64,000 nucleotides of DNA from the NCBI GenBank assembly GCA_043731355.1, contig JAYTJE010000028.1, positions 13,261 to 77,260 of the forward strand, in the 5' to 3' direction. Position numbers and translations under genes: made by a program. This DNA is from Nitrospirota bacterium. Its GTDB lineage: Bacteria > Nitrospirota > UBA9217. This document shows positions 28,691-58,775 of this stretch, piece by piece; the first letter of the stretch is position 1, and every line of letters starts with the position of its first letter. The notes under the pieces are model-generated. The model was not told the origin of the DNA and ran no database searches. It was given only the letters and a program-made list of their open reading frames with translations.

Positions 28691-28698
28691 ACTTTCTG

Positions 28699-32812: not shown

Positions 32813-32879
32813 CAAAACTCTGGCAGTTACCACGGAAAAGGCCACGGAGTATCACGGATACAAGTAAGAGATGAGTTCG

Positions 32880-33210: not shown

Positions 33211-33244
33211 TACATATTAATTGCAGAAATACTATGCCTGATGT

Positions 33245-35444: not shown

Positions 35445-36203
35445 ATGATTCTCGGGAAAAGACTCATTGTGGTAATGCCCGCGTATAATGCGGAAAAAAC
35501 GCTCCGGCAGACCTATGCGGAGCTCCCTCATGAGTATGTTGATGAGGTCATCCTGGTGGATGACGCGTCCCGGGACCATACGGCCTCCGTTGCGCAGGAG
35601 CTCGGCATCACCACGATCGTGCATGCCGAGAACAGAGGCTACGGCGCAAACCAGAAGACCTGTTACCGGGAGGCGCTGAGGCTCGGCGCCGACATTGTGG
35701 TGATGGTCCACCCCGATTATCAGTATTCTCCGCGGCTCGTAACGGCCATGGCTTCCATGATCACGTCGGGGCATTATGACGTTGTGCTGGGGTCGAGGAT
35801 TCTTTGCGGAGGGACCTGGCGGGGGGGGATGCCCTTCTATAAATACATTGCCAATCGCTTTCTCACGTTGATAGAGAACCAGATGCTTGGAGTAAAATTA
35901 TCCGAGTTCCATACCGGCTACCGGGCATTCAACCGGGAGGCGCTTCTTGCGCTGCCTTTGGAGGAGAATTCAAACGATTTTGTTTTTGACAACGAGATGC
36001 TTGCACAGGCGGTATACCAGGGCTTCCGCATCGGCGAGATAAGCTGTCCCACAAAATATTTTGACGATGCCTCCTCGATCTCGTTCATGCGCAGCGTCCG
36101 CTATGGTTTCGGTGTTCTGGCGACGTCGCTGAAATTTGTTCTTCAGAAACTCGGCCTCGCACACTTTGCCCTGTTCAGCGGCCGCCGTAGGGGAGGGTGG
36201 TAA
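35445..36203 (+). CDS. GT2 glycosyltransferase, polyprenyl-phosphate mannose/glucose synthase (Dpm1-like)
   Basis: [12 protein letters not shown]...[12 protein letters not shown] and the DxD-like DADM region. Confidence 0.75.
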
Positions 36204-41875: not shown

Positions 41876-42051
41876 GAACCGAGCATTCCCCCTGTCCGTG
41901 TCACCAAAGAGGCGATCAAATTCCCCTCAAGCCGTCTGCGCAAATCAAAAAACACTGGCTGTAAGATAGCCGAGAAACCTCTTGTTTGTCAAGAGAATTA
42001 ATCATAGCCGGAACTTGCTTTTGCTGCGTCTTTTTGGTATTCTGCCGTACG

Positions 42052-44238: not shown

Positions 44239-44323
44239 TTTGGTGTTCGGAGCAAACCCAGAGCGCCGATTGCGCATTTCAACTCCGAACCCCGAACGCC
44301 GAACATATTTAAAGGGGGGTCAC

Positions 44324-44692
44324 TTGGATACAGCATCAACAATATTAGTAAGCATCATCGTCCTCTATGCGCTCGTGAAACTGATCGGGCGCCTCAGCCG
44401 TCTCGGCATCAGGCAGATAAGCCCCCGGGAGCTTGATCAGAAAAAAGGCATCATGCTCATCGATGTCCGCACGGACAGAGAGTTCAGCCAGGGGCACATC
44501 CCCGGCGCGGCCCATGTGCCTCTCTCCGACGTCGGGACCCGGGTCAAAAAAGTGAAAAAGGACAAGGAAATCGTGGTGTACTGCCGGAGCGGCAACCAGA
44601 GCATCTGGGCGATCAAGCGCTTGATGGGAATGGGCTACACGCATCTCTCCAACCTGAAGGGCGGCTATAGTGCCTGGAAGCGAATTCATTGA
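44324..44692 (+). CDS. Membrane-anchored rhodanese-domain protein
   Basis: TM helix then rhodanese fold with active-site CRSGNQS; probable TTG start after a GGGGGG RBS (the ORF track starts at 44240). Confidence 0.6.
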   Translation: MDTASTILVSIIVLYALVKLIGRLSRLGIRQISPRELDQKKGIMLIDVRTDREFSQGHIPGAAHVPLSDVGTRVKKVKKDKEIVVYCRSGNQSIWAIKRLMGMGYTHLSNLKGGYSAWKRIH

Positions 44693-45326
44693 AGAGCTGA
44701 AGCGCGACTATCGTGCCAGGCGGCCGCGGATCGTTAAAAGGCTTGCGGAGTTCAAGCAGGTGTACCGCAAGGGCGATGCCGTAATCTTCGAGGAGCTCTG
44801 CTACTGTATTCTGACCGCGGGCAGCAGCGCCAGGATGGGGATGCGCACGGTCGATGCTCTTCGTGACCTTCTGCCGCGAGGGACCTTGCAGGAGCTGCAA
44901 CAGCGCGCCCGGACAAGCCACGCCCGGTTCTGGCGGGTACGGCCGTCCTACATCGTGCATACGCGGGAACGTCTCAGGGAGCGTTGCGGTCTCAGGATGC
45001 GGTCCTTTATCGGTTCTTTTGAAAGCCCCGAAGCCCGGCGGGATTTTTTTGCATCGGACAAGGGGATCAAGGGGCTGGGATATAAGGAAGCGAGCCACTT
45101 TCTCAGGAACATCGGATTCGGCGGCTACGCGATCATAGACAAGCATATCCTGAACAGCCTGCGCGAGCTGGGGGTCATTGGAAAGCGCACACGGTCGCCA
45201 ACGACGCGCGCACAATATCTTGCAATAGAAAAAAAACTGGCCCATTTCTCCCGCGAGCTCGGAATCGATATGGACCATTTGGACCTGCTGCTGTGGTCGC
45301 GGAAGACCGGGGAGATTTTGAAATGA
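44670..45326 (+). CDS. ogg: N-glycosylase/DNA lyase, archaeal-type 8-oxoguanine DNA glycosylase (Ogg2 family)
   Basis: HhH-GPD: GIKGLGYKEASHFLRNIGF...AIIDKHI; 218 aa; overlaps the rhodanese gene 3' end by 23 nt. Confidence 0.7.
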   Translation: MPGSEFIEELKRDYRARRPRIVKRLAEFKQVYRKGDAVIFEELCYCILTAGSSARMGMRTVDALRDLLPRGTLQELQQRARTSHARFWRVRPSYIVHTRERLRERCGLRMRSFIGSFESPEARRDFFASDKGIKGLGYKEASHFLRNIGFGGYAIIDKHILNSLRELGVIGKRTRSPTTRAQYLAIEKKLAHFSRELGIDMDHLDLLLWSRKTGEILK

Positions 45327-46130
<804 letters not shown>

Positions 46131-46133
46131 CAC

Positions 46134-46430
46134 ATGCCGGATAGCGGTCTTAAAAAAGCGGTCATCATCGGAGCGGTGCTTGGCGCTGCGGCGACCTTGG
46201 GGGCCGCATTCGCCATGGATTATGTCCTGTCGGACTCGCTCCAGGGGACCTGGCGGGACGCCGCGGCCAAGGACGTGACCAAAATCTTCGGGACCTCCTG
46301 CGGGCAAAACTATTGGGCTGTTTCGCTGGCGCTGGTGTTCGTCATGTCGTTCCTGGCCGCTTTCGGCGCGGTGCTGGGTGTTGTGGCCGGGGTGATCATG
46401 AACCGATTCTTTAAATTAGTGCTCAAGTAA
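46134..46430 (+). CDS. Small two-TM membrane protein
   Basis: 98 aa; two hydrophobic helices; no family assignment. Confidence 0.4.
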   Translation: MPDSGLKKAVIIGAVLGAAATLGAAFAMDYVLSDSLQGTWRDAAAKDVTKIFGTSCGQNYWAVSLALVFVMSFLAAFGAVLGVVAGVIMNRFFKLVLK

Positions 46431-46599
46431 GGCGCTTAACCTGAATATTTGGTTATTTATTAAAATAAATGCTCAATAGACAGAAAACCAACAGCGTTTT
46501 GAGCATAATCACTCATAAAATCAGGCGTTATCAGGTGTTTATATGTTGTATTTGTCGGCAACTTAAATAACTTATTGATATAAAAGGCTAATGAATTCA

Positions 46600-46615
46600 T
46601 GGTATGCGTATTGCA
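46600..46615 (+). promoter_or_regulatory. Sigma-54-like promoter TGGTATgcgtaTTGCA upstream of the second tetrahaem cytochrome operon
   Basis: GG-N10-GC spacing and the TTGCA -12 element, in a 270-nt AT-rich leader; paralogous position to the 29530 promoter. Coordinates approximate. Confidence 0.45.
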
Positions 46616-46702: not shown

Positions 46703-47470
46703 ATGCTAAAGAAGCGAGCGTGGATAGTTCTGATGACGGCCTGCATGATCCTGGGCGTTTATGGAATGGCTGTCGGCCTTCCTATTATGGGCAGCAAGCA
46801 TGACTTTTCGATTTCCGGTGGGGGTAATTTTGGCGGGGCCAATTTTCAGCTGGCGAATGGTGCTCCCGTTGAGGAAATATGTGTGTTCTGCCACACTCCG
46901 CATAATGCCGCTGCGCCGGGGGCGTTTCTCTGGAACCGGACCGGCACAGTCGCGACCGGTTACACCATGTATTCAAGCTCCACACTCACCTCGGCGATAA
47001 ATATGGGCACGGCTCCTACCGGCTTGACGCTCCTGTGTATGAGCTGTCACGACGGTATAACCTCCATAGCGGTTGGAACGCTTATCAATGCTCCCTATTA
47101 TGTAAATGGCCGCCAGCAGGTTGTGCTTTCCGACCCAGTCAACGGATACAGTAAAATAGGCGATCTTTATAATGGTACCATTATAGGCTGGGGCGCAAAT
47201 ATCGGCAACAAAGTTCCAGGTGTGGGCGACACCATAGCAGATCTTTCAAATGACCACCCGGTATCCTTTACGTGGGTTTCCGGCATCACCGGCATTAAAG
47301 AGCCAACCAGCACTTCGACAGGAGCCTGGGCAACAGGGCCGGAGCTTAAGCTCTTCGGCGGCAGGATGGAATGCTCTACCTGCCACAACGTGCATGATTC
47401 AGCGACCCAGCCTTTTTTAAGGATGTCTAATGTCAGCAGTAATATGTGCTTGGCATGTCACAATAAGTAA
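46703..47470 (+). CDS. Tetrahaem c-type cytochrome (paralog of 29764)
   Basis: Signal peptide; SKHD...CVFCHTPH...LWN N-terminal motif shared with 29764; four CXXCH. Confidence 0.8.
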   Translation: MLKKRAWIVLMTACMILGVYGMAVGLPIMGSKHDFSISGGGNFGGANFQLANGAPVEEICVFCHTPHNAAAPGAFLWNRTGTVATGYTMYSSSTLTSAINMGTAPTGLTLLCMSCHDGITSIAVGTLINAPYYVNGRQQVVLSDPVNGYSKIGDLYNGTIIGWGANIGNKVPGVGDTIADLSNDHPVSFTWVSGITGIKEPTSTSTGAWATGPELKLFGGRMECSTCHNVHDSATQPFLRMSNVSSNMCLACHNK

Positions 47471-47512
47471 TTAATGATATAATTGATTTTTATGGCTATC
47501 TCGGAGGTGAGT

Positions 47513-50251
47513 ATGAATAGGAAATTATACCTGATGGGCGCGGTTATTCTGGCAACACTGCTGCTTCTGTTGCCTGGCGCCGGCTATGCGGCCCCTTCGC
47601 TGATCGGCGCTGTTACGGATGCCGTGGATAGACCTGCCTCTGTTGCTCTGGACTCGCAAGGAAATATCTATGTCTCCGAGACGGCAAACGACCTGCTGAA
47701 GGTATACAGCCGAAAAGGCAAGCTGCTGAAACAGCTAAGTATTCAACGCCCGCTTGGTGTGGCGGTTGATGCCTCGGGTTCTCTCTATGTAGGTTCCGGA
47801 GGGAGGCGCGCTGTAGATGTGTACGCTCCCGATTATACCTATGTCCGCAGTCTTGGCGCAGGGAAGGGTGAAGTCTCCCGGCCGGGATCAATAGCAGTGG
47901 ATGGGGCTGGAAGGGTGTATGTGCTTGACGCTGCGACGAGTATGGTCCGCGTGTATGATGCTTCAACCGCGCTGATGCTCTTCGCGTTCGGCGGCAGCGG
48001 CGCCACAGACGGTCTTTTCAACAGACCGATGGCGCTCGCCGTAAGCGACACTCTTGGCGAGATATATGTTGCCGAGCTCCGGAAGACGGTAATCTCCAGC
48101 GGCGCTACCATAGATGGGGCAAAAATTCAGGTGTTCGACAAAGCGGGCGCCTTTAAGAGGTCGTTCGGTGACTATGGCCTCGAAGCGGGGAAAATCGGCA
48201 AACCGGTCGGTATGGCTTTAGACGGCTCCGGTAATATTTTTATCCTTGATCTCATTCAGGGCGCTGCGCTTTCTTTTGATGCAACGGCGGGGACCTTCAA
48301 CAATACCGCGCTGTATAAGACGGTAAGCTCGATGCCTCTCGGAATCGCGATTGGTAAAAACAAGATCGCTTATGTATCGCAGGCAAACGCCCGGATCATA
48401 GATATCTATGGACTTGACGGCTACACGACCATGGATGAGACGCCAACTGCCCTGACCTTCGAAAGTAAACAGCTGAGCGCAAACGCTCAGGCGCAAACTG
48501 TTACGATCACTAACGCTGGAAATGGTTCTTTAGGATGGACAGCAGCGGCTGATAGTGACTGGATAACCCTGGGTGCAATGAGCGGGATCGCGGGTCCGAG
48601 CAGTTCAAGCAGCCTTGTTGTTGGTACGAACAATGCGAACCTGAAAGCGGGCACGTATCAGGGTGTGGTAACGGTAACTGCTGATTTCGGCCAAATAGAT
48701 AAGATTCCCGTAACCCTTACGGTGACTCCCGCGGCGACGATTGGCTTCAGCAATGGATCGATTGCTGTTGTAGCCAAAACTGGCAAAACGCCGGCTGCGC
48801 AGCCGATAACGATCAATGTGCAGAATGCCGCCTCGCTTCCCTGGACGGCTTCTTCTGATGCTTCCTGGCTTGGCCTTTCCACGGCCAGCGGCACCGCGAC
48901 CACGGTATCGGCCCTCTTTATTAATATGACGAATATCGCGCCCGGAACGTATACCGGGCATATCACGCTTTCTGCGCCGGGCGCAATCGGAAACGGGGGC
49001 AAGCTGACCGTCAGTCTCACGGTGACGCAGGGTACCAGGATCAGCGTGACCTCGAATATCCCGGATGCCCGGTTTACGGTTGCTGGTGCTACCACCTCCT
49101 ATACGGGTTCCGGCACGACATGGAGCGTCGAGGGGGCCCCTCTGGGTGATTACACCATTACCTTTGATGCGGTAAACGGATATCGCAGACCTCTTTCTCA
49201 GACGATAAGCCTGAACGATGCGGAGGTTACCGCCACGGGAAACTATCGTTCTTTGGCTGATATCGCTGACCGCACGAATATCATTGCAGGCAGGGAAGAT
49301 CATGAGAATAACAGCTCGAAAATAAAAATTTACAAGAACGACGGGACCCCGGTTGCCGCTCAGGTGTCTTTTGGCGCGGATGGCAAATCCGGCGCGCTCG
49401 CGGCGTCGGCGGATGTTGATGGAGACGGCACGGCGGAGCTTATCGTGGTAAGCCGCGTTGGCGCGAACAAACCCTCCGTTGTGCGGGTGCTTAAATCCGA
49501 TGGGACCATGCTGGCTGAGTTTGCGCCCTATGCGATGCCCGGCGGTATTAACGTGGCAGCGGGCGATCTGAACGGCGATGGCAGAGCGGAGCTTGTGGTC
49601 GCCCCCGCGGGGAACGAGAGAAGCGCCCCGGTCAAAGTATATGCCTACCAGGCGGATGCAAAAGCACTGGTGGCGACAGGAATTGAACTTACCACGTTTG
49701 GATACGATCAGGCCGTTGTAGTCGCTGTTGCGGATACGACGGGCAATGCGGCGCCGAAGCTTATTGCCGCGTCGCAGCAGGTTATGAGCGTCTGGACGAT
49801 TGATTCAACAAAGGGCGCGGGAAACTGGACAGCCTCGCTGCTGAACGACTTCAAGTTCATTGCCAGGGGAGAGGCTTCACTCTCGGCCGGAGATGTTGAC
49901 GGCGACGGCACGGATGAAATCATTGTCGGTGAAGGCCCGGGCGTCGTCAAAGCCTCCTCGTATAATTCCGCATCAAGAGTTATGCTATTTAAAACCGACG
50001 GTACTTCGGTCGGTGGGTTTGCCCCCTTCGCAAACTTTCCTTACGGCGTGAGCGTGGCGGCGGCCGATCTGACCGGCGACGGCATTGCTGAAGTGGTTGT
50101 CGGGTCCGGCGAGGCTCAACGCTCGTCAAAAAACAATAAAACGTCAAAAGTCAGCATCTTTAACGCGGCGGGAAAACTGTTGAAAACCATAACGCCCTAC
50201 GCAAATTCGCACAGCGGTGTTAATGTCACGGTTGGAGAGATGGGATTATGA
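47513..50251 (+). CDS. Large secreted NHL-repeat / beta-propeller protein with C-terminal FG-GAP-like repeats
   Basis: Signal peptide; N-terminal NHL units (YVSE/YVGS/YVLD/YVAE); central Ig-like segment; C-terminal repeated D.DGDG..E..V motifs (VDGDGTAELIVV, LNGDGRAELVVA, VDGDGTDEIIVG, LTGDGIAEVVVG). GGAGGTG RBS. Confidence 0.75.
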   Translation: MNRKLYLMGAVILATLLLLLPGAGYAAPSLIGAVTDAVDRPASVALDSQGNIYVSETANDLLKVYSRKGKLLKQLSIQRPLGVAVDASGSLYVGSGGRRAVDVYAPDYTYVRSLGAGKGEVSRPGSIAVDGAGRVYVLDAATSMVRVYDASTALMLFAFGGSGATDGLFNRPMALAVSDTLGEIYVAELRKTVISSGATIDGAKIQVFDKAGAFKRSFGDYGLEAGKIGKPVGMALDGSGNIFILDLIQGAALSFDATAGTFNNTALYKTVSSMPLGIAIGKNKIAYVSQANARIIDIYGLDGYTTMDETPTALTFESKQLSANAQAQTVTITNAGNGSLGWTAAADSDWITLGAMSGIAGPSSSSSLVVGTNNANLKAGTYQGVVTVTADFGQIDKIPVTLTVTPAATIGFSNGSIAVVAKTGKTPAAQPITINVQNAASLPWTASSDASWLGLSTASGTATTVSALFINMTNIAPGTYTGHITLSAPGAIGNGGKLTVSLTVTQGTRISVTSNIPDARFTVAGATTSYTGSGTTWSVEGAPLGDYTITFDAVNGYRRPLSQTISLNDAEVTATGNYRSLADIADRTNIIAGREDHENNSSKIKIYKNDGTPVAAQVSFGADGKSGALAASADVDGDGTAELIVVSRVGANKPSVVRVLKSDGTMLAEFAPYAMPGGINVAAGDLNGDGRAELVVAPAGNERSAPVKVYAYQADAKALVATGIELTTFGYDQAVVVAVADTTGNAAPKLIAASQQVMSVWTIDSTKGAGNWTASLLNDFKFIARGEASLSAGDVDGDGTDEIIVGEGPGVVKASSYNSASRVMLFKTDGTSVGGFAPFANFPYGVSVAAADLTGDGIAEVVVGSGEAQRSSKNNKTSKVSIFNAAGKLLKTITPYANSHSGVNVTVGEMGL

Positions 50252-50280
50252 TGCGCATAATGCACGAAGGAGCGGCGACT

Positions 50281-52494
50281 ATGAAGAAATCGAATTACAT
50301 ACTGATTTCACTCTTACTACTCATTGGCATATTCTGTGCCGCGAGCGTGTCTTATGCGCTTGATGCGCCGCATACTCCTGTCGGCGTCGCCGGTTACGAC
50401 GTCAACTGTGCCTATTGTCACTACCCATTGACTGCCGCCACTCCAGCGTGGGCCACGGCTGCTCCTCCCGCGGGGAGCACTAAGCTGAACCAGCTTTGTC
50501 TGACTTGTCATAATCCCAGTAATGGCATACCGGTCGCGAAGTTTGCGGATGTACAAACCCATTCCAGCTACGTGACCAATCCCACGGATACTTTACGCAT
50601 CGGCGTCTATCTCATGGAATGCCGCACCTGTCACAACCCGCACCTTCAGAATCAGATGAGGGCGCTTCCCGCGGACGGCAATTTGGATTTCGGCACGACG
50701 ACTAATGTAACCGCTACCTTGCTGTCAGACAGCACCAAGAGCTGGGGTGTTGACCAGTTTAAGGATGCTTTGCTGATACCGAATACCGCTTACATCGCGT
50801 ATACATACCGGATTCTCAGCAATACCAAGGACACCCTGACCATTCTTGGCGCGATGAAAACCATGTCACCCTATACCGGCGTGGGCAAGCCCTATCGTAT
50901 CAAATACGGCAAGTTGATCAAGACGTCAATTCCAACTCCGAACAGCGGCGCAAAGCCCGTCACCTTCCTGACCAATTCCGGAGGTTTGACTTCTTTCGCA
51001 TCAACCACCGCCACGGTCAAAGGTGTTTGTCAGGTCTGCCATACCAAGACCAAATATTTCCTTGGCAGCGGAGCCGTGCTCGACGGCGGCCATCCAGCGA
51101 CCTATGACGCGAACTGCACCGTTTTCTGCCATCAGCACAAATATGGATTCAAGGCGGGCTGCAACGGTTGTCACGGTCAGAGCGGCGCGACCGGGGCCCC
51201 GCTTATCGGCACGGACCTTGTCAGCCCCGCGACCGGTCATACTGTCGGCGCGCATCAGAAGCATGCTGTAACGCTTACCATCGGCTGCGATGTGTGCCAT
51301 AGCGGAAACGGCATGCCGACTACGGATAATATAATAACGGTAGCCTTTAGCGGCATAGGTACCGGTGGGGCCTATCAAGGCAAAACATTGTCTGTTCCCT
51401 ATGTTTACAGCGCGGGTGTCCCGACCGGCGCAACCGAGAGCTGCTCCACCGTATATTGTCACAGCTCGGGCCAGAGTGCTGACGGCGCATCGGCAACTCC
51501 TGTCTATACAACACCGGACTGGGAAGCCCCGGCCAGCGGCGCTTGCGGCACCTGCCATGCGACAACGGCGCCGGATATTTCAACAGGCAGTCATACGACG
51601 CACCTGACGACCGATACCAACTGCGGTAACTGCCATACCGGCGCAAGCGCATCAGCATATGTTTCCGCGAGTCATGTTAACAAGTCCATCGACGTAGCGA
51701 ACGCTTATACAGCGGGTGGCGCTCCCGGCAATGGATACGGCACCTGCTCGACAGCTTCCTGCCATGCCAACGTATATGCCGTAGGCACGTCGCCGACCCC
51801 GACCTGGGGCACGACTGGCAACGGCTGCTCGGCCTGCCATACTGCTCCGAATACGATTGCGGCAAGCGGACCGCCGACCGGGAGTCACTCGAAACACTAC
51901 ACTAATAATAATGTGTCCGTGGTGTGTACGGCTTGCCACAACGCAGGCACAACGATGTCAACGAAGCCGACCACGAGTCATACCGATGGTGATATTGACA
52001 TCGTCAACGTCGGATATCCCGCTAACAAAACAAAAGGCAGCGCCTTCTCCACGTGTGCCACTGCTTGTCACGGAGCTACCACCCGAACGTGGGGGCAGAC
52101 ATCAACCGGATGCAACTACTGCCATCCGTACACGGCAAATGACTGGGCGACCAGCAATCCGACCGGTACGGCGCTCGCGGTGGAAGGGTTCGGCGCGCAT
52201 GCCAAACACATCGCCCATCTGGTGTCGCTTGGGGGCGTCCTCACTCCCGCGACAGACTCATTCGGCAGCGGTGCCTCATGGACCAACGTATGCGGCGTAT
52301 GTCACAACGGGGCCTCGCACACGCTGGATGGAACCGTTGGAAGCAGGCAGATATCGGTCCAAGCAGGCTACCAGTTCGGAGCGAGCGCTCCGCTGTACAC
52401 CGGAATTATCGGCAACAGTTCAAGCGTCAACCCGAAGAGCTGCTCGAACGTAAGCTGTCATTTCCAGACCACGCCGGTTTGGTCGACCTACTAA
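50281..52494 (+). CDS. Multihaem c-type cytochrome (~17 haem motifs) with signal anchor
   Basis: 12 CXXCH plus 5 atypical motifs (CTVFCH, CSTVYCH, CSTASCH, CATACH, CSNVSCH) in Geobacter-type paired CX4CH...CXXCH arrangement; AAGGAG RBS; overlaps the upstream gene. Confidence 0.85.
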   Translation: MKKSNYILISLLLLIGIFCAASVSYALDAPHTPVGVAGYDVNCAYCHYPLTAATPAWATAAPPAGSTKLNQLCLTCHNPSNGIPVAKFADVQTHSSYVTNPTDTLRIGVYLMECRTCHNPHLQNQMRALPADGNLDFGTTTNVTATLLSDSTKSWGVDQFKDALLIPNTAYIAYTYRILSNTKDTLTILGAMKTMSPYTGVGKPYRIKYGKLIKTSIPTPNSGAKPVTFLTNSGGLTSFASTTATVKGVCQVCHTKTKYFLGSGAVLDGGHPATYDANCTVFCHQHKYGFKAGCNGCHGQSGATGAPLIGTDLVSPATGHTVGAHQKHAVTLTIGCDVCHSGNGMPTTDNIITVAFSGIGTGGAYQGKTLSVPYVYSAGVPTGATESCSTVYCHSSGQSADGASATPVYTTPDWEAPASGACGTCHATTAPDISTGSHTTHLTTDTNCGNCHTGASASAYVSASHVNKSIDVANAYTAGGAPGNGYGTCSTASCHANVYAVGTSPTPTWGTTGNGCSACHTAPNTIAASGPPTGSHSKHYTNNNVSVVCTACHNAGTTMSTKPTTSHTDGDIDIVNVGYPANKTKGSAFSTCATACHGATTRTWGQTSTGCNYCHPYTANDWATSNPTGTALAVEGFGAHAKHIAHLVSLGGVLTPATDSFGSGASWTNVCGVCHNGASHTLDGTVGSRQISVQAGYQFGASAPLYTGIIGNSSSVNPKSCSNVSCHFQTTPVWSTY

Positions 52495-52505
52495 GGAGGA
52501 TGACA

Positions 52506-55500
52506 ATGACCAGGCTTGGTGATATAATGGCGAAGATTAAAAATTCAAATGGTGAGGTCAGTATGACAATTAAAACGATGAAGACTCCAAAATCCTCTGG
52601 ATGGCTGGCAAAGGTCAGTCGGGTACTGATCTTCACCATGGTGAGTGTTCTCTCATATCAGGTCTACTATGCTTATGCATCCATAGGCAGCGGGCAGATG
52701 GTTTATAACAACAACACAACTACCCCGCAGGCGAGAACTTATACTGTTTCATCAAATACATTTGCAGCAGGTATTGCAACTGCAGCCGGGGGAACGCCCT
52801 CATGGATTAAGGTTGTTGCAGGAACAGTAAGGTACGAATCTGTTGTTGCTTATGTTGACACTGGAAACACCCTTCGAATCCTCTACTGGAACGGCTCAGC
52901 ATGGTCAGCTGCTGCGCCCCATAACTGGACCGCGGCGCTTGGGGCCTCAGGCGCAAGCGGAAGGGGATTTGATATTGCTGTGGAGAAGCTCTCAGGTGAT
53001 ATCATTGTCGCATACACAACAAATGCTGCCGGCACGGAGATAAACTCCTACCGCTGGGATGGCAGCACATGGACAGGCCCAACAGCGTATGATTCTGCCA
53101 GACTTACCGGAACTGTCCGCTTCATCAAGATGGAATCAAAACCTAACTCAGATGATATCGGCCTCATAATGGCTGATACAAACAATGACCTGAGCGCAGC
53201 GATCTGGACCGGAACAACAAATACATTCGGCAATCCTCCTTCTGCTGCCTTAAGCACTTCAGCGTCATTTATCGTTGCCGGTGCAGTTGACGCAGAAAGT
53301 TTCGATCTTGCGTATGAGAGTCAGACCGGAGATCTTCTGGTCGTTTGGGCCAATGATGCTATTGCTACCGGAGTATATTACAATACATTTTCTGGCGGTG
53401 CATGGGGAACAACAGCACAGAATACCAATATTACGGAGGCGATCGAGCATCTTGACTGTGCAGCTGATCCATTGACCAATAATATCCTCTGTGCTTTTGT
53501 TGGAACGGCAACACAGGATATGCGGGTTGGCGTATGGTCCGGTACAGCATGGCAGGGAACTACCACAGACGTGGATACTACAGCAGCGCCCGGAACATTT
53601 GTTGCCGGCAGAAGATACCTTGCAACAGGATGGTTGAATGCCGGCTCCGCGAAACAGGGCATAGTCGTATATAACGACAATAATGCAAATGCAATAAACT
53701 GGGTTACAGTTGCTGCAGATGGCACCTTTGCCGTGCAGACGGATAACACAGCGGCAACACCGATGCCTGTAGGCGGAGTTGCATACCATGACATAATCAT
53801 GGATCCATATAACCCTGACATATTGCTCTATATATTTCAGGATACGACCAACTTTGATATCTTTGCAAAGAGACTTATAATGGATTCTGCCGGTGCATTT
53901 ACATGGAGTGACGCCAACGCAGGCGTTGTAATTGACGCTGCTCCTACTACTGCAGCAAGCGAGGCATTTCATTTTGCCTATGACCTGTATTTGCTCGCAA
54001 TAGACAACGGCACAAACCCGTCAGACCTCTCCGTAGGGGAGAGCTCGACAGATAACGCATTGGACAGTTTTACCATGCAGATGAAGTCAGGGAGCGGCAC
54101 TGTAACAAGCCTGGTGGTGACCGGCAGTACGAATTTTACATCTACGAACATCCCGACTAACGGCGTGAAGGTATGGCGCGACCTCGGAACACTCGGGGTC
54201 TATGACCCTGGAGTTGATGTTCAGATATCGTCAGCTTCCACTGCGATCGCGAGCAACGCAACAACGGTCACCATAAGCAGTGAGGCTGTTACGACAACAC
54301 TTCAGAACTATCTTGTTACCGTAGACATTACAGCCGCACCAACATATGGTCAGACGTTTACCGGAACTGTCACGACCGCAACGGCAAGCGGCATCCCCGT
54401 GTACAACGACACGTCTTCAGCGACCCTGACTGTAACTGAAAGGAACCTGACCGTCAGCAACGGCACAAACCCGGTCAATAAGAACGCTCAGCCAAGCTCG
54501 GTCAACAATGCGCTGGACGGTTTCAGCATGGTTATGCCGCTGGTGACAGGCCCAACAACCACAGTGACGAGCCTGACTGTTACAGGCAGCGCCAACTTTA
54601 CATCTACGAACATCCCGACCAACGGTGTGAAGGTATGGCGTGACACCGGAACAACTGTTGGCTGGTGGGATGCTGGCGATGTGCTGGTATCGAGCGCATC
54701 CACTGCGATCGCGAGCAACGCAACAACGGTCACCATAAACAGTGAGGCGGTCACAACAACTGCCCAGAACTATCTTGTGACAGTTGACATCACTGCCGGT
54801 GCAACTCTTGCTCAGACTTTCACAGGCACAGTGACTGCGGCAGCGGGAACCGGCCTCGGCACGCCGGTCTACGCGGATTCATCGTCAGCGACCCTGACGG
54901 TCAACAAACTGCTTTCGGCAAATGCTTCCTGCGGAAGCTGCCACGCCTATCCGCCCTATGACGGAACAACGCGGGATGGTGTGAGCGGCGCGTTCGTGGG
55001 CGATCATCAGAAGCATAACGTCGTGTGCTTGACCTGCCATGTGGCGCCTGCCACCGAGACGAGCGCAGACTTTAAACATCGCGACGGGAACATCACCATG
55101 CAGGCGGCCATTAAGGGCGGCTCGTACAGCAAAGCGAGCCCTTTTGCCCAAGTGAATAATCCGGTGACCGGCACGTGCTCGAATATATCCTGCCATGGCG
55201 GCAATAATCCAACACCCCAGTGGGGCGTCGGAACGGCAACCTGTATCAGCTGCCATAGCGGAATAGTTACCGCGGCGAACGCGTCAATTGCTTCCGGCGG
55301 CACGGTGACGCAGCGCGACGCGGTGAAGAATGAATTTGGTTTGGCGTGGGGGCATAAGAATTTAAATCGTTTAGCGGTTACCGATGCTGACTGCATTGTC
55401 TGTCACCTGGAAGGCAATTGGACGACGCAAAAAACATCAGCCGTGCATGCCGACGGATATATAAACTTGCGTGCCCCGGATGGAGCCGGTGAAGTAGCTA

Positions 55501-56480
55501 TTACGGATATGAGCGCGGCGACATATAGCTTCGTACAATTTTCAACTACCTATGCCGCCGGTTCAAGAACTCAGACCGGCAACACATCAAACAATGTAGA
55601 CAATGTCCTGACTCAGAAGTTCTGTCTCGCCTGCCATGACAGCAACGGGGCTACCAATACGACGGCGCGCTCTAACAATGGGGGCACAGGCACCGCGACA
55701 ATGCCTTTCGGCGGTGTGGCGTTAGGGCTTACTTACACCGCGGTCAATGACGCAATCGGCACTCAAGGTTTAATCGACGTTAAGTCTCAGGTTGCAACAT
55801 CGAATTCATCGTTCCACCCGGTTGTGGGACCGCTGAACAGGGATTTCCCGGCACAGTCAATGCTGAATGTGCCCTACAATAATAACGGCTCGAGACCTGG
55901 GACGTCGGGAACGAAAACATTCAGCGTAGTTTTGAACTGCTTTGACTGTCATAATCAGCCTTCCGGCAGCGAACTTACTAAAAGAACCGTCATATCGCAC
56001 GGCTCTACAGCCCCGAACCACTTACGCGGCAATATATATAGTTCAACTACTCCGATCTGTACCGTATGCCATTCGGCCACGTACGCAACCGGCACCAGCT
56101 CGCATCCGGCAGGATCGGCTTGGGGTGTTGCGACCTCTCGCGACCATTCGTCATACTTTCCCTTGTGCAATAACTGCCATTTGAGCACAACCTCAACGAC
56201 GGCGCCGACCCGACCGATCCCGGCGCAGGACATACACGGGTTTAACAGGCTGTCAAACGCTGGCAGCACGGATTTACTCTGGCCGGTCGGCGCCACTGAA
56301 TCCTGGAGGCCTTATGGGTTCTTGAGGAATACCGTGCAGTACACCAGTACCGTAGCCGGGCCGAGGCCGTACAGAGGCACGGAGGCCGCGCTTACGACGG
56401 GTACTTCCAACTGCGGTAATGATGCGGTATCTTGCGACGCCACCCTCATGACCGATTACGCGCCTGGCGGCTCGTATTAA
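52506..56480 (+). CDS. Mega-cytochrome (1324 aa): N-terminal TM anchor, beta-propeller-like W-G-x-x-W repeats, two tandem ~120-aa T/S-rich repeats, C-terminal ~9-haem domain
   Basis: AAGGAGG RBS 6 nt before ATG 52506; eight CXXCH plus CSNISCH in the last 450 aa; the ~120-aa unit TVTSLVVTGS.NFTSTNIPTNGVKVWRD...TLTV occurs twice. Confidence 0.8.
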   Translation: MTRLGDIMAKIKNSNGEVSMTIKTMKTPKSSGWLAKVSRVLIFTMVSVLSYQVYYAYASIGSGQMVYNNNTTTPQARTYTVSSNTFAAGIATAAGGTPSWIKVVAGTVRYESVVAYVDTGNTLRILYWNGSAWSAAAPHNWTAALGASGASGRGFDIAVEKLSGDIIVAYTTNAAGTEINSYRWDGSTWTGPTAYDSARLTGTVRFIKMESKPNSDDIGLIMADTNNDLSAAIWTGTTNTFGNPPSAALSTSASFIVAGAVDAESFDLAYESQTGDLLVVWANDAIATGVYYNTFSGGAWGTTAQNTNITEAIEHLDCAADPLTNNILCAFVGTATQDMRVGVWSGTAWQGTTTDVDTTAAPGTFVAGRRYLATGWLNAGSAKQGIVVYNDNNANAINWVTVAADGTFAVQTDNTAATPMPVGGVAYHDIIMDPYNPDILLYIFQDTTNFDIFAKRLIMDSAGAFTWSDANAGVVIDAAPTTAASEAFHFAYDLYLLAIDNGTNPSDLSVGESSTDNALDSFTMQMKSGSGTVTSLVVTGSTNFTSTNIPTNGVKVWRDLGTLGVYDPGVDVQISSASTAIASNATTVTISSEAVTTTLQNYLVTVDITAAPTYGQTFTGTVTTATASGIPVYNDTSSATLTVTERNLTVSNGTNPVNKNAQPSSVNNALDGFSMVMPLVTGPTTTVTSLTVTGSANFTSTNIPTNGVKVWRDTGTTVGWWDAGDVLVSSASTAIASNATTVTINSEAVTTTAQNYLVTVDITAGATLAQTFTGTVTAAAGTGLGTPVYADSSSATLTVNKLLSANASCGSCHAYPPYDGTTRDGVSGAFVGDHQKHNVVCLTCHVAPATETSADFKHRDGNITMQAAIKGGSYSKASPFAQVNNPVTGTCSNISCHGGNNPTPQWGVGTATCISCHSGIVTAANASIASGGTVTQRDAVKNEFGLAWGHKNLNRLAVTDADCIVCHLEGNWTTQKTSAVHADGYINLRAPDGAGEVAITDMSAATYSFVQFSTTYAAGSRTQTGNTSNNVDNVLTQKFCLACHDSNGATNTTARSNNGGTGTATMPFGGVALGLTYTAVNDAIGTQGLIDVKSQVATSNSSFHPVVGPLNRDFPAQSMLNVPYNNNGSRPGTSGTKTFSVVLNCFDCHNQPSGSELTKRTVISHGSTAPNHLRGNIYSSTTPICTVCHSATYATGTSSHPAGSAWGVATSRDHSSYFPLCNNCHLSTTSTTAPTRPIPAQDIHGFNRLSNAGSTDLLWPVGATESWRPYGFLRNTVQYTSTVAGPRPYRGTEAALTTGTSNCGNDAVSCDATLMTDYAPGGSY

Positions 56481-56508: not shown

Positions 56509-56538
56509 AGCCCCGCCCTTTCGGGCGGGGTTTTTGTT
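56509..56538 (+). terminator. Rho-independent terminator after the mega-cytochrome gene
   Basis: GCCCCGCCC-tttc-GGGCGGGG hairpin followed by TTTTTGTTT. Confidence 0.7.
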
Positions 56539-56561
56539 TGGCATTGTAAACAAGGAGTGAA

Positions 56562-58034
56562 ATGAGCATGAAAAGATTTTCTACCGTATTCGTTCTGGCA
56601 ATCCTCTGTCTTATGCCCCTTGTATTTTCCGCGGGGTGCAAAAAGAAGCAGGTAAAGACCCCGGCGATGCCCGCAGCCCCCGCCAGGCACGAGGTTGTAG
56701 CGAAGACAACGCTTCTGGCAACGATCCCGGAACTGGATAAACCAATCCAGTCAGAGGGGTTGCCGCCTCGTCACGCCGGCATCCCCTCCGGTTCGGGAGG
56801 CCCGCCGCCCGGCCATGCCAATATCCCTTCAGGACAAAGCCCTGAGCTCCTGGTTTATTTCAGTAAACTGGGTGGGGGAGCGGCCTATATTTCGGAAAGG
56901 GCCGGCAAAAAGCATGTGGTGTACAACGGCAAACCGGGCAAACCGTACGATGAGATCGACACTCTTACCGTGCTCTTAAGTGAGGACGGTCGGCGAATCG
57001 CCTATGGCGCCAGGACCGGGGCCAAGTGGATGATGGTGATAGACGGCGCGGAAGAAGGTCCGTACGACAGTGTTGGGTCCGCGGCCTTCAGCCCCGACGG
57101 CTTGCATGTCGCCTACCAGGCGCGGCAGGGCGGCAAATGGCACGTTGTATCCGGCACCAAGATGAGTGCGGGATGCGATACGTATCAGAATCAACCGATG
57201 TTCAGCGGCGATTCGACAAGAATATACACGATAGAAAAGACAAAAGTTGAAGGCATGCAGCGGCTGATTGTCAGCGACCTTGCATTCGAGAAGCAGCGTG
57301 TCAAGGTGCTGCGCGGGAAGTATTTATTTACGAACGAAAACAAAACCCGGATAGGCGCGATCGAGGAGGTCAATGGCAGGGAGCGGGTGATCGAATTGGA
57401 TTTCAACACGCTTGACGTCGTCAAACAGGGTGACTTCTATGATTCCATCAGATTTCCCACATTCGGGCCTGACGGCGTTACGGTTTCGTATGCCGCGGCG
57501 CAGCGCCAAAGACCCGGCGTTGTTTTTCGTTTTCTTATATTGGGCGACAGAAAGGAACGTCTTCCGGATGACGCTCCGATGGCGCTTCCCGTGGTCCGCC
57601 CGGACAAGAAAGGCGTCGGCATGATTATGTCGACTAAGACCAGTTACTACCTGCACCAGGCCTTTTATAACGACGGCACGAAGAAGCGGTATTATGATGA
57701 GGCCGGTGACCTGGCCTATAACAAGGACGGAAGTCTTCATGCGTTCGCGGCAAGAAAAGGCAATAAAGTCTTTATCGCGGTGAACGAAAAGGCCGGGCCC
57801 GCATTCGATCATGTGACTATGCCGGTATTCAGTCCCGACGGCAGGAAGGTCGTCTACCGGGCGAGAGAGAAAGAAAAACGGTTCCTTGTTGTTGCCGACG
57901 CCAACGGCAGGGTTTTGCGCAAGCATCCGGCCTATGAGAGGATTTTTGATCCCGTGTTTACCCCTGACGGGAAGTCGGTTGCCTATGGGGTCAAGGACGG
58001 GGACAAGCTTGTCTGGAAGGTGGAGAAGCTGTAG
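56562..58034 (+). CDS. Lipoprotein with PD40/TolB-like beta-propeller repeats
   Basis: Lipobox FSAGC; repeated FSPDG..VAY / SEDGRRIAY units. Confidence 0.6.
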   Translation: MSMKRFSTVFVLAILCLMPLVFSAGCKKKQVKTPAMPAAPARHEVVAKTTLLATIPELDKPIQSEGLPPRHAGIPSGSGGPPPGHANIPSGQSPELLVYFSKLGGGAAYISERAGKKHVVYNGKPGKPYDEIDTLTVLLSEDGRRIAYGARTGAKWMMVIDGAEEGPYDSVGSAAFSPDGLHVAYQARQGGKWHVVSGTKMSAGCDTYQNQPMFSGDSTRIYTIEKTKVEGMQRLIVSDLAFEKQRVKVLRGKYLFTNENKTRIGAIEEVNGRERVIELDFNTLDVVKQGDFYDSIRFPTFGPDGVTVSYAAAQRQRPGVVFRFLILGDRKERLPDDAPMALPVVRPDKKGVGMIMSTKTSYYLHQAFYNDGTKKRYYDEAGDLAYNKDGSLHAFAARKGNKVFIAVNEKAGPAFDHVTMPVFSPDGRKVVYRAREKEKRFLVVADANGRVLRKHPAYERIFDPVFTPDGKSVAYGVKDGDKLVWKVEKL

Positions 58035-58058: not shown

Positions 58059-58775
58059 ATGATCAGCGCCGTTATCCCCGCCTATAACGAGGAGGACACA
58101 CTGGAAGCCGCCGCGCGCGCGCTCGCCGGGGTCCTGTCGCGGCTTTCCCCGCTTGAGTGGGAAATCATTATCGTAAACGATGGAAGCCTGGACCGCTCCG
58201 CCGAGATAGCCGACAGGCTGGCAGATGATGCTCACATTCGCATCGTCCGGCACGAGCGAAACCGGGGCAAGGGCGCGGCCGTGCGGACCGGGGTGCTTCT
58301 TACCCGAGGGGATGTGGTGCTGATTTGCGACGCGGACATGTCCACCCCTCCGGACACGCTGGGGCCGTTTCTCGCGGAACTTTCCCGCGGGGCCGATCTC
58401 GTGACAGGCGACCGCAGGAGCCGTCATTCCCGCATCGAGCGTCCACAATCACTCCTTCGGCGGTTTATGGGCGGCGTATACGCGGCCCTTGCCCGATGGA
58501 TTACCGGAATATCCCTGCGTGATTTCAACTGCGGATTCAAGCTGATCCGAGGTGACGCGGCCCGCTCTCTGCTGCAAAGATGCCGGTCCGACGGATGGAC
58601 CTGGGATGTGGAAGTCATCGCCCTGGCCGCGCGCTCCGGGTTGACCGTACGAGCTCTTCCGGTAACGTGGCGACAGGGGGACCGCACGTCGGTCCGCCCC
58701 TTTTGCGGCGCGGTAAAAAGCCTTGTTGATTTAACAGCTCTCTGGTTTCGTCTGCGCGGGGCAAAAAACCTTTAA
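58059..58775 (+). CDS. GT2 glycosyltransferase, Dpm1-like polyprenyl-phosphate sugar synthase
   Basis: VIPAYNEEDTL...IIIVNDGSLD..., RNRGKGAAVRTG, CDADMS (DxD). Confidence 0.75.
   Translation: MISAVIPAYNEEDTLEAAARALAGVLSRLSPLEWEIIIVNDGSLDRSAEIADRLADDAHIRIVRHERNRGKGAAVRTGVLLTRGDVVLICDADMSTPPDTLGPFLAELSRGADLVTGDRRSRHSRIERPQSLLRRFMGGVYAALARWITGISLRDFNCGFKLIRGDAARSLLQRCRSDGWTWDVEVIALAARSGLTVRALPVTWRQGDRTSVRPFCGAVKSLVDLTALWFRLRGAKNL

Follow-up and report, generated by a model that had tools for sequence, protein, structure and literature searches.

An OmcE-family cytochrome operon encoding a 17-haem cytochrome and a propeller-nonahaem protein in a Nitrospirota bacterium: a candidate extracellular electron-transfer module

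Cytochrome nanowires have been solved from few cultured organisms, and how such wires are fed with electrons, how they are anchored and how they start and end is the question touched by the locus described here. In a 64-kb window of Nitrospirota DNA (the whole stretch analysed, 64,000 nucleotides), four genes that we call locus 2 had been predicted to form a translationally coupled, extracellular electron-transfer or nanowire-type set ending in two giant multihaem proteins. We asked which of these proteins could form a filament and what the others might do beside it. Our reading, to which we assign a probability of roughly 0.6, is that locus 2 encodes an extracellular electron-transfer module with an OmcE-family tetrahaem cytochrome at its centre. 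It probably moves electrons between the cell and outside solids.

Locus 2 is a compact, co-directional unit, g1-g4, that runs from a sigma-54-type promoter (46600-46615) to a strong terminator (56509-56532). As predicted, all four open reading frames are on the + strand, at 46703-47470 (g1, 255 aa), 47513-50251 (g2, 912 aa), 50281-52494 (g3, 737 aa) and 52506-56480 (g4, 1324 aa). Their junctions had been described as overlapping or no longer than 12 nt, but the same coordinates give gaps of 42, 29 and 11 nt; gaps of 12, -4 and 11 nt are obtained only with the longest-ORF starts at 47483 (TTG) and 50248. A ribosome binding site, GGAGG, lies 5 nt ahead of the g2 ATG at 47513, the N-termini of homologues favour 50281 over the alternative start at 50248 for g3, and the start of g4 is ambiguous between 52506 and 52563 on the basis of ORF start candidates and a homologue alignment. 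Given these gaps and the homologue-supported starts, the compact operon stands, and translational coupling is therefore not established. The intrinsic terminator (56509-56542, + strand) consists of a hairpin at 56509-56532 with a 10-bp stem containing 8 G-C pairs, followed by TTTTGTTT. With its T tract it is the sole strong terminator, as originally proposed, and the remaining terminator-like matches are at chance level (17 found versus 13.3 expected). Just beyond it, outside the coordinates first given for the locus, lies a conserved fifth gene, g5 (56562-58034).

The g1 ATG lies 103 nt downstream of the -24/-12 element of the sigma-54 type promoter (TGGTATGCGTATTGCA, 46600-46615, + strand). 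Within the 64-kb window, TGGYAY-N5-TTGCW matches twice (0.24 expected), in each case ahead of one of the two OmcE paralogues encoded there. Among fetched loci, TGGTAT-N5-TTGCA precedes 8 of the 9 closest g1 homologues, and the strict sigma-54 motif was found at 25 of 157 OmcE-like genes (0.005 expected per 420-nt stretch). Farther upstream, GAAAACCAAC-A...TGAGCATAATCACTCA (46483-46515, + strand) is a candidate sigma-54 activator site (UAS); the element is kept in register before g1 homologues in 9 loci aligned with MAFFT, and its exact pattern, TGAGC-N5-CACTCA, has one occurrence in the window. A putative IHF-like site is located on the - strand at 46568-46580, where the reverse complement, TATCAATAAGTTA, fits the consensus WATCAANNNNTTR as read from the sequence. 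Among the aligned loci, the TTGAT core (TTGATA in 8 of 9) is conserved in the interval that separates the -24 box from the upstream element. This layout of palindrome, IHF-like site and sigma-54 box is common to locus 2 and to a second gene cluster in the window, locus 1.

The protein that best indicates the function of the locus is g1 (46703-47470, + strand), which is predicted to be a secreted tetrahaem c-type cytochrome of the OmcE family and is our candidate filament subunit. An N-terminal hydrophobic leader can be read from its sequence, and its size and its 4 CxxCH motifs (at residues 60, 112, 224 and 249) fit an OmcE-family subunit (~220-260 aa). A phmmer search of the PDB matched g1 to the Geobacter sulfurreducens OmcE filament (7tfs_A, E 1.9e-28, query residues 16-129 and 169-255) and to the Desulfuromonas soudanensis OmcE bundle (9yuq_N, E 2.6e-21, query residues 9-132 and 178-255); judged from these alignments, g1 is a full-length homologue of both OmcE proteins that have been solved as filaments. 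It contains exactly eight histidines (H33, H64, H67, H116, H185, H228, H231 and H253), all invariant in a 20-sequence alignment, and the motifs KHD, CHTPH, CHDG, NDHP, CHxVHD and CHxK align with those of OmcE. By sequence, then, g1 keeps all four haem sites together with all eight of the predicted axial histidines, two for each haem. Eight histidines suit a monomeric bis-His tetrahaem cytochrome equally well.

This clear OmcE homologue bears out the prediction of an extracellular electron-transfer or nanowire-type gene set, and it moves the candidate nanowire component from the giant proteins to the small tetrahaem g1. The search for nanowire families that had been proposed had a divided outcome: g1 matches OmcE (7tfs, 9yuq), whereas g3 and g4 match no solved nanowire or reductase, and neither single-sequence nor profile searches of all PDB chains returned an OmcS or OmcZ entry for either protein, so that we rejected an assignment of g3 and g4 as OmcS/OmcZ-type nanowire cytochromes.

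The family to which g1 belongs is large, with 1069 relatives at E <= 1e-5 and OmcE-like tetrahaems at 588 or more loci in species-representative genomes, including many Gammaproteobacteria and Gallionellaceae-type lithotroph MAGs. That abundance is one of the points in favour of an alternative that we consider rather unlikely, namely that g1 forms no filament and is a monomeric outer-surface or periplasmic shuttle, with the operon encoding a cell-bound, propeller-scaffolded multi-cytochrome complex; the at least 588 such proteins may not all polymerise. In addition, locus 2 has no secretion pore. According to Petersen et al. (bioRxiv 10.1101/2025.10.22.684050), an OmcE homologue counts as a nanowire candidate only when it has a large beta-barrel as well as a propeller lipoprotein next to it, and locus 2 offers half of this neighbourhood: propellers are adjacent (g2 and g5), and the barrel candidate is in locus 1. 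The match of g1 to both filament subunits argues the other way, since it is full-length and includes the N-terminal KHD histidine near the predicted mature N-terminus. So do the position of the barrel candidate, 11.5 kb upstream, beside the g1 paralogue and behind a similar sigma-54 promoter layout, and the contiguity of locus-1-type and g1/g2/g3 gene sets in two other genomes. NHL-stabilised outer-membrane cytochrome complexes, as proposed for Desulfovibrio ferrophilus IS5, provide a model for a filament-free arrangement.

Locus 1 (29764-35185) encodes a beta-barrel candidate, a SurA-like prolyl isomerase, an NHL lipoprotein and a tetrahaem cytochrome. The last of these (29764-30420) is paralogous to g1, as originally noted (30.6% identity, E 2e-28). 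The barrel candidate is a 646-aa protein (33245-35185) whose C-terminus, ...YMVKLSRPF, is outer-membrane beta-barrel-like; no similarity was seen when the sequences of the putative barrels were compared. Pfam and NCBIfam models detected no beta-barrel and no prolyl isomerase in locus 2. In loci L017 and L032, locus-1-type genes (for a 632-685 aa protein, a PPIase, an NHL protein and a cytochrome) lie directly upstream of g1/g2/g3 homologues, and a dependence of locus 2 on locus 1 is suggested by adjacency in these two other genomes only. If g1 is a filament subunit, which its likeness to OmcE suggests, it would be exported by Sec, receive its haems and then polymerise head to tail into an insulated extracellular haem wire, as OmcE does. 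Export and assembly of g1 may proceed through the locus-1 barrel, SurA-like isomerase and NHL lipoprotein, given that neither a barrel nor an isomerase is encoded in locus 2 itself.

The second gene, g2 (47513-50251, + strand), encodes a predicted secreted protein with no Cys, in which an NHL propeller is followed by two BACON-like Ig domains and an FG-GAP propeller. Matches to Pfam NHL (2.7e-14), BACON_2 (3e-13), FG-GAP (5.8e-21) and FG-GAP_3 (1.7e-19) agree with its earlier description as a 912-aa NHL/FG-GAP protein; signal peptides of g2, g3 and g4, on which their localisation is based, were read by eye. A tetrahaem-NHL partnership has been described for omcE and uet clusters (bioRxiv 10.1101/2025.10.22.684050; bioRxiv 10.1101/2022.05.06.490989). 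Likewise, we found an NHL propeller within 3 kb in 53 of 59 OmcE-like loci from many phyla, the propeller being small outside Nitrospirota-type loci. In 12 of the 14 closest metagenome loci, the gene immediately upstream of the g3-like gene resembles g2. The product of g5 (56562-58034, + strand, 490 aa) is a PD40 (WD40-like) beta-propeller lipoprotein, with a Pfam PD40 match of 6.6e-13, a lipobox, FSAGC, read from the sequence, and a partial match to NCBIfam TmcD_fam that at 90.5 bits is far under the cut-off of 440. A g5 homologue is present downstream of every strong g4 homologue with enough sequence (L001, L084, L093, L100 and L101). The order g1-g2-g3(-g4-g5) is found in L001, L004, L017, L032, L069, L084, L085, L088, L090, L099-L101, L103 and L124, and the g1-g2-g3 order recurs only in Nitrospirota-type contigs. 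Both g2 and g5 may act as propeller scaffolds that keep the cytochromes together.

The third gene, g3 (50281-52494, + strand), encodes a predicted secreted cytochrome with 12 CxxCH, 2 CxxxCH and 3 CxxxxCH motifs, which gives 17 haems and matches the earlier estimate. An N-terminal c7-like trihaem domain (Pfam Cytochrome_C7, 1e-15) is followed by a beta-sandwich insert and then by haem modules of roughly 100 aa. At E <= 1e-10 there are 159 homologues, CxxxxCH/CxxCH cytochromes by name, from Nitrospirota and Desulfuromonadaceae MAGs, and their haem motifs number from 12 to 40 per protein. The view that the giant proteins belong to no characterised family holds in one respect and fails in another: g3 (73.1 bits) and the haem domain of g4 (33.8 bits) both exceed the cut-off of 27 for the named CxxxxCH/CxxCH family (NCBIfam TIGR01904 / PF09698), with which they share a modular build and a variable haem count, yet we know of no member of TIGR01904 with a known function. 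An AlphaFold2 model of g3 had a pLDDT of 47.6 and was unusable for haem geometry.

We consider it most improbable that g3 and g4 are periplasmic enzymes, namely multihaem reductases acting on nitrite, hydroxylamine, tetrathionate or polysulfide. This idea draws on weak matches of the g3-family profile to PDB chains, the best being NrfA (6v0a, E 2.9e-4, 21.9 bits), with the octahaem cytochrome 1sp3 at E 2e-3. However, these scores are at the level of haem-motif noise and cover short stretches, a g4-family profile search of the PDB gave nothing at E <= 1, and none of the NCBIfam reductase models gave a match. The motif CxxCK is absent from g1, g2, g3 and g4, and the histidines (35 for the 17 haems of g3, 20 for the nine haems of the g4 domain) are numerous enough to ligate every haem in bis-His fashion, so that no open site is obvious. 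With no match to a solved reductase and no CxxCK, the orthology to Nrf/Hao-type reductases that the original prediction had named as evidence against itself was therefore not found, and we rejected NrfA, HAO and octahaem tetrathionate reductase as identities for g3 and g4.

As part of an electron-transfer module, g3 would instead be a bis-His haem rod of adjustable length, with 17 haems here and 12 to 40 in homologues, that relays electrons between periplasmic carriers and the filament. Relatives of g3 in Desulfuromonadaceae (L163 and L164) occur in arrays of giant cytochromes, runs of up to 7 large cytochrome genes without an OmcE-like or g2-like neighbour, and the g3 family is therefore not nanowire-specific. 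The link of CxxxxCH/CxxCH cytochromes to OmcE-like genes is specific to Nitrospirota-type loci.

The product of g4 (52506-56480, alternative start 52563, + strand) had been called a mega-cytochrome. Its nine haem motifs, however, all lie within residues 809-1225, in the last 40% of the protein, and residues 60-805 are haem-free; it is better described as a modular secreted or anchored protein. Residues 55-495 (52668-53990) form a predicted beta-propeller with the blade motif W-x-G-x-x-W, a member of a widespread domain family that has no Pfam model. Residues 496-805 (53991-54920) consist of two tandem repeats of ~154 aa, rich in Thr/Ser/Asn, predicted to be all-beta and possibly Ig-like; in the DNA they are direct repeats with 462-nt spacing and 78-82% identity, and the proteins are identical at 105 of 161 columns. 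Residues 806-1324 (54921-56477) comprise a nine-haem domain (8 CxxCH and 1 CxxxxCH) with the conserved end motif Y-x-P-G-G-x-Y. The T/S/N/A/G content of g4 is 50-57%. Its 32 homologues are mostly from Nitrospirota and Thermodesulfovibrionales MAGs. We aligned g4 with homologues P0002, P0003, P0007 and P0008, of which P0007 and P0008 have ~5 to 6 repeat copies; the haem domain is 57-74% identical among homologues whose N-terminal parts differ.

This distribution of conservation bears on an explanation that we judge improbable, in which g2 and g4 function chiefly as adhesins or matrix proteins, in attachment or biofilm structure rather than in respiration, and the haem domains are secondary. In g4 the strongest conservation is in the haem domain and not in the propeller, and its co-transcription with two other multihaem cytochromes argues that electron transfer is primary. 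Residues 1131-1230 give a partial match to the Pfam MtrC-MtrF_II-IV_dom model (PF22113, 39.9 bits versus a cut-off of 30). Like the MtrC/OmcA decahaems, which are presumed to be surface-exposed terminal cytochromes, g4 presumably acts at the surface; only about 100 of 176 profile positions of the MtrC/MtrF pentahaem domain II/IV match, however, and we found no TIGR03507 (OmcA/MtrC) match, no decahaem four-domain build and, in locus 2, no MtrAB-type partners. We rejected g4 as an MtrC/OmcA decahaem on the basis of its nine motifs, the partial PF22113 match and the missing TIGR03507 match. Within an electron-transfer module, g4 would sit at the cell surface, where its conserved nine-haem domain would exchange electrons while a swappable propeller and Ig-like stalk would bind a surface, be it mineral, matrix or partner cell.

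A bolder version of this role, which we regard as a long shot, is that g4, possibly with g3, is the missing end-piece of OmcE-type filaments, a co-transcribed cytochrome capping or anchoring the polymer and coupling it to a specific external surface through the exchangeable propeller and stalk. Such a role would explain why the haem domain is conserved and the binding domain is swapped between lineages. According to Petersen et al. (bioRxiv 10.1101/2025.10.22.684050), the omcE operons of Desulfuromonadia contain no gene for such a tip or terminator candidate; if the end-piece reading is true, the Nitrospirota operon supplies one. In uncultured Nitrospirota-type bacteria, common members of groundwater and sediment communities, an OmcE-family subunit appears to be accompanied by an accessory set that is different and much larger, apparently under sigma-54 control. 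That set provides concrete candidates for an electron-input rod (g3, 12 to 40 haems) and, in g4, for a terminal cytochrome that binds a surface. Should these roles be true, they bear on nanowire assembly and termination and on iron, manganese or interspecies electron cycling by such bacteria.

We conclude that locus 2 is a lineage-specific variant of the known OmcE/Uet-type system with an accessory protein set not previously known. The omcE cluster of Desulfuromonadia (G. sulfurreducens GSU0615-0618 region, D. soudanensis DSOUD_2954) has a tetrahaem subunit homologous to g1. As in locus 2, an NHL propeller is encoded next to it, and the cluster also includes a second propeller lipoprotein and two more multihaem cytochromes. 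The two clusters differ in that the NHL protein is a 912-aa secreted FG-GAP fusion in locus 2 and a lipoprotein of roughly 365 aa in the omcE cluster, the omcE operon includes a beta-barrel whereas the locus 2 operon has none, and the omcE cluster is placed between resB/ccsB and ffh whereas locus 2 lies beside, on its upstream side, genes for a histidine kinase, a rhodanese and Ogg. The omcE locus of Geotalea toluenoxydans (L046) has two octahaems of 244 and 328 aa in place of the 17-haem and propeller-Ig-nonahaem proteins, and tblastn found no match of g3, g4 or g5 to it at E <= 1e-5. We rejected a Desulfuromonadia-type minimal omcE cluster as a description of the whole of locus 2, as orthologous accessory genes and the resB/ccsB context are absent. 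GT2 and TPR/membrane genes lie downstream of locus 2, which in this respect resembles the omcE clusters followed by GT2 and TPR genes that Petersen et al. (bioRxiv 10.1101/2025.10.22.684050) class as "glycosylated".

The uet set of Candidatus Tenderia electrophaga (tetrahaem UetA, prolyl isomerase UetB, beta-barrel UetC, NHL UetH/I and large extracellular multihaem UetJ; bioRxiv 10.1101/2022.05.06.490989), whose cluster is also found in some Gallionella (bioRxiv 10.1101/2022.05.06.490989; PMC10734462), raises the question of direction. Electron uptake by aerobic lithoautotrophs was proposed for uetA-J, which encode a 28-strand barrel, three trihaem c7 proteins, a cupredoxin and an undecahaem cytochrome (bioRxiv 10.1101/2022.05.06.490989). 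The same proteins in our window could likewise take up electrons from Fe(II) minerals, metallic iron, a cathode or a syntrophic partner, a possibility we take seriously while holding it to be the lesser one. By domain content, nearly every item of the uet parts list (bioRxiv 10.1101/2022.05.06.490989) has a counterpart in locus 1 (tetrahaem, NHL, PPIase, candidate barrel) plus locus 2 (tetrahaem, NHL fusion, g3 with 17 haems where uet has 11). In addition, many MAGs of Gammaproteobacteria and of Gallionellaceae-type lithotrophs carry OmcE-like genes (PMC10734462), and bis-His haem chains are reversible. Conversely, the cupredoxin and the separate trihaem c7 genes of uet are absent from loci 1 and 2; the nearest relatives with a name are MAGs of Thermodesulfovibrionales and Nitrospirota; and the window contains anaerobic-type genes (e.g. 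ETF with a ferredoxin domain and acyl-CoA dehydrogenase) and no oxidase or carbon-fixation genes. Given that the haems would work either way, outward transfer to metal oxides or partner cells is only slightly favoured over uptake.

Two further systems resemble locus 2 by description. In the osc (omcS-companion) operon of G. sulfurreducens (Shen et al. 2025, summarised in PMC13194489), a filament cytochrome is grouped with folding and secretion factors and with the large multihaems OscI (GSU2495) and OscJ (GSU2494), a grouping that locus 2 resembles; the osc filament subunit, however, is the hexahaem OmcS, whose sequence is unrelated to that of g1. The PCC3 porin-cytochrome clusters of Gallionellaceae encode pairs of very large linear multihaems with 10 to 35 haems, for which a longer conduction range was proposed (PMC10734462), and so share with locus 2 the pairing of very large cytochromes of variable haem number. 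PCC3 clusters include a porin of their own but lack a tetrahaem OmcE-like gene, whereas in locus 2 the reverse is the case.

We read locus 2, a four-gene operon on the forward strand at 46703-56480, as an OmcE/Uet-type extracellular electron-transfer module, and we put the probability of this reading at roughly 0.6. It is the best-supported interpretation of the observed homologies, operon structure, synteny and promoter, and it agrees with the original prediction of an extracellular electron-transfer or nanowire-type gene set. In the model that we propose, the g1 protein would form the wire, g3 would act as a relay rod of adjustable length, g4 would sit at the surface as a cytochrome whose binding head can be exchanged, g2 and the product of the neighbouring gene g5 would serve as propeller scaffolds, and export would be provided by locus 1, the OmcE-paralogue gene set that lies 11.5 kb upstream. 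For this model we infer polymerisation, localisation, and the order and direction of electron flow. Systems of this kind are already known (OmcE, Uet and osc), and the presence of OmcE homologues in Nitrospirota has been remarked on before (Petersen et al., bioRxiv 10.1101/2025.10.22.684050).

The operon consists of g1 (46703-47470, 255 aa), g2 (47513-50251, 912 aa), g3 (50281-52494, 737 aa, with a longer alternative start at 50248) and g4 (52506-56480, 1324 aa, with a second plausible start at 52563), whose products contain 4, 0, 17 and 9 haem motifs, respectively. The four genes had been described as translationally coupled, with junctions that overlap or span at most 12 nt. Such junctions are obtained only with the starts of the longest open reading frames; the likeliest starts leave intergenic gaps of 42, 29 and 11 nt. 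Thus, the genes do form a compact operon, but coupling is not demonstrated. The single terminator was borne out: a hairpin at 56509-56532 is the sole strong one, and the remaining terminator-like matches occur at chance level, as do the promoter-like matches found elsewhere by the same scan. Ahead of the operon, a 106-aa open reading frame at 45958-46278 encodes a low-complexity repeat and overlaps a 98-aa membrane-protein frame at 46134-46430; the latter is the more plausible, and the former is probably not a gene.

When all PDB chains were searched with g1, only two significant matches were obtained, and both are cytochrome filaments: Geobacter sulfurreducens OmcE (7TFS, E 1.9e-28) and the OmcE of the D. 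soudanensis bundled nanowire (9YUQ, E 2.6e-21). Both halves of the protein align with these filament subunits, including the motifs KHD, CVFCHTPH, LWNR, CMSCHDG, NDHP and CHxVHD. The g1 protein has exactly eight histidines, all of which are invariant in a 20-member alignment. The large family of g1 numbers 1069 relatives at E <= 1e-5, and at least 588 OmcE-like loci occur in species-representative genomes of many phyla. Therefore, judged from its sequence, g1 is an OmcE-family tetrahaem cytochrome, and it may polymerise into a filament. A cell-bound complex lacking any filament is a rival reading that we consider unlikely. As predicted, g1 is paralogous to a gene of locus 1 (29764-30420; 30.6% identity, E 2e-28). 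That paralogue has nine histidines, the additional one lying in LWNHS, as compared to eight in g1; the filament "stopper" has been speculated to be an OmcE-like tetrahaem protein that has nine histidines (Petersen et al., bioRxiv 10.1101/2025.10.22.684050). We also looked for an OmcE-like module within g3 and g4 as a possible hint of a tip or stopper. The hhalign probability was only 3.6% for g4, and for g3 the alignment recovered no more than the paired-CxxCH motif, at 73% probability over 50 columns; neither result was accepted as evidence for such a role.

Locus 1 as a whole (27959-36203) comprises the OmcE paralogue, two TPR proteins, a GT2 glycosyltransferase (35445-36203) and three further components. 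These are an NHL lipoprotein (30747-31829), a prolyl isomerase of the SurA type (31826-32812) and a protein of 646 aa (33245-35185) that contains an Asn-rich loop and ends in YMVKLSRPF, which resembles an outer-membrane-protein beta-signal. By domain content, the parts list of locus 1 corresponds to that of the uet cluster of Candidatus Tenderia electrophaga (bioRxiv 10.1101/2022.05.06.490989) and of minimal omcE clusters. Inward electron uptake has been proposed for uet, and the same direction is a rival reading for locus 2, for which we lean slightly towards outward transfer. No barrel or prolyl isomerase gene is present in locus 2, and gene sets of the locus-1 and locus-2 types are contiguous in two of the comparison loci, L017 and L032; for these reasons, locus 2 may depend on the export and folding proteins of locus 1. 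The 646-aa protein showed no similarity to the large proteins found at the equivalent place in L017, L032 and the Geotalea toluenoxydans locus L046.

The two loci also resemble one another in their promoters. Two copies of the sigma-54 pattern TGGYAY-N5-TTGCW are present in the window, where 0.24 are expected; one lies 103 nt ahead of g1 and the other 234 nt ahead of the locus-1 paralogue. TGGTAT-N5-TTGCA is found upstream of eight of the nine closest g1 homologues, and the strict motif precedes 25 of 157 OmcE-like genes, compared to an expected 0.005 for each 420-nt stretch. When nine upstream regions were aligned, two further conserved blocks emerged, GAAAACCAAC-A...TGAGC-N5-CACTCA at 46483-46515 and an IHF-like TTGATA box at 46568-46580. 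The locus-1 promoter region (29441-29545) has the same layout, with a palindrome TGAGC-N17-GCTCA, an IHF-like site TATCAATTGTTTG and a sigma-54 box TGGCACGGCTATTGCT at 29530. This shared layout suggests that one activator could govern both loci. No sigma-54 activator gene was found among the scanned open reading frames of the window, and an NtrY-like histidine kinase (41986-44238) is the sole regulator in the vicinity. The division into two sigma-54-driven loci appears to be undescribed in the literature searched.

In g2, a secreted protein that contains no cysteines, an NHL propeller is fused to two BACON-like Ig domains followed by an FG-GAP propeller. The third gene does encode the expected 17-haem cytochrome (12 CxxCH, 2 CxxxCH and 3 CxxxxCH motifs); g3 scores above the cut-off of TIGR01904, a CxxxxCH/CxxCH family, has a c7-like trihaem domain at its N-terminus, and possesses 35 histidines, enough for bis-His ligation of 17 haems. 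Among its relatives, the haem-motif count ranges from 12 to 40, apparently growing by added modules of approximately 100 aa. Homologues that follow g1 and g2 homologues include a 1737-aa protein with 40 motifs, 30 CxxCH and 10 CxxxxCH (L017, 13696-18909), and a 1714-aa protein with 37 (L069, 10943-16087). An AF2 model of g3 from a 32-sequence alignment (mean pLDDT 47.6, pTM 0.35) is confident only for a beta-sandwich at residues ~125-225 and is too poor for haem-stacking geometry.

The predicted "mega-cytochrome" proved to be a smaller cytochrome in a large protein, since the nine motifs of g4 all lie inside residues 809-1225 of 1324. Its N-terminal propeller domain (52668-53990) has no Pfam model and has 920 relatives at E <= 1e-3 among 1.84 billion representative proteins, mostly haem-free giants; this domain family, too, appears to be undescribed in the literature searched. 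Members can be as long as 7926 aa and can match over as many as 14 stretches, and many of ~600 aa share the C-terminal motif PFSFAYWRNP. Residues 496-805 comprise two ~154-aa units that arose by recent duplication and share 78-82% DNA identity. The nine-haem domain (residues 806-1324) retains 57-74% identity in homologues with different N-terminal parts, which carry Calx-beta or fn3 domains instead. A mainly adhesive role for g2 and g4 is a further rival, which we judge improbable. Conserved C-terminal tails, CHF[QK]xTPxWSxY in the g3 family (52453-52491) and Y-x-P-G-G-x-Y in the g4 family (56456-56477), seen also among the homologues in L001 and L069, could be sorting or docking signals.

Single-sequence and profile searches of all PDB chains matched neither g3 nor g4 to a solved nanowire or reductase, in partial agreement with the original view that the giant components are not obvious members of characterised families. 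Neither protein has a CxxCK motif. On the profile search and this absence, an Nrf/Hao-type enzyme was rejected, and a catalytic reductase is effectively excluded. A paper on a polysulfide-reducing multihaem selenoprotein (PMC13510729) proved unrelated.

An NHL propeller is encoded no more than 3 kb from the OmcE-like gene in 53 of the 59 loci with adequate flanks, and it is usually a ~360-aa lipoprotein such as that in locus 1. Only five loci among those anchored on g1 or g4 show g1, large g2 and g3 in this order (L001, L004, L017, L032 and L069), all Nitrospirota-type. The names given to relatives suggest that the window, too, comes from Nitrospirota, probably Thermodesulfovibrionales. For the 14 closest g3-anchored metagenome loci with upstream sequence, g2 lies upstream in 12 and g1 in 9. 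The more remote g3 relatives, from Desulfuromonadaceae MAGs, belong to series of giant cytochrome genes that include neither g1 nor g2. One such MAG (GCA_028687585.1; L163, 2958-23267) has seven consecutive large multihaem cytochrome genes of 466 to 1285 aa, including one g3 relative, and no OmcE-like gene nearby. The Geotalea omcE cluster (L046) instead encodes two octahaems of 244 and 328 aa, for which no similarity to g3 or g4 was detected. The accessory set, comprising the 900-aa NHL/FG-GAP fusion, the 12-40-haem TIGR01904 cytochrome and the propeller-Ig-nonahaem protein, appears to be undescribed in the literature searched.

Beyond the terminator, g5 (56562-58034) encodes a PD40 propeller lipoprotein, a homologue of which follows every strong g4 homologue that has sufficient downstream sequence. 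In L001, from a related MAG, toxin-antitoxin-like small genes (DUF433/DUF5615, and DUF4160/DUF2442 twice) lie between the g4 and g5 homologues (13548-15772), so this junction tolerates inserted genes. Downstream of g5, a GT2 (58059-58775), two reverse-strand membrane/TPR proteins (58772-60844 and 60841-62544) and a second GT2 (62547-63275) resemble the glycosylation block behind many omcE clusters. NCBIfam nanowire-assembly models gave only generic matches to these TPR genes and the locus-1 proteins. Upstream of g1, the NtrY-like kinase, a rhodanese-domain protein and an Ogg-type glycosylase (41986-45326) recur in two named Nitrospirota MAGs (L004, 218-3563; L069, 1333-4632), which probably reflects genome relatedness rather than function. 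A layout analogous to locus 2 is found in Geothrix fermentans DSM 14018 (L021, 1379-10639), a cultured, experimentally accessible Fe(III) reducer, where an OmcE-like gene is accompanied by an NHL gene (365 aa), next to two cytochromes of 13 haems each (995 and 859 aa) and a divergent propeller gene (486 aa).
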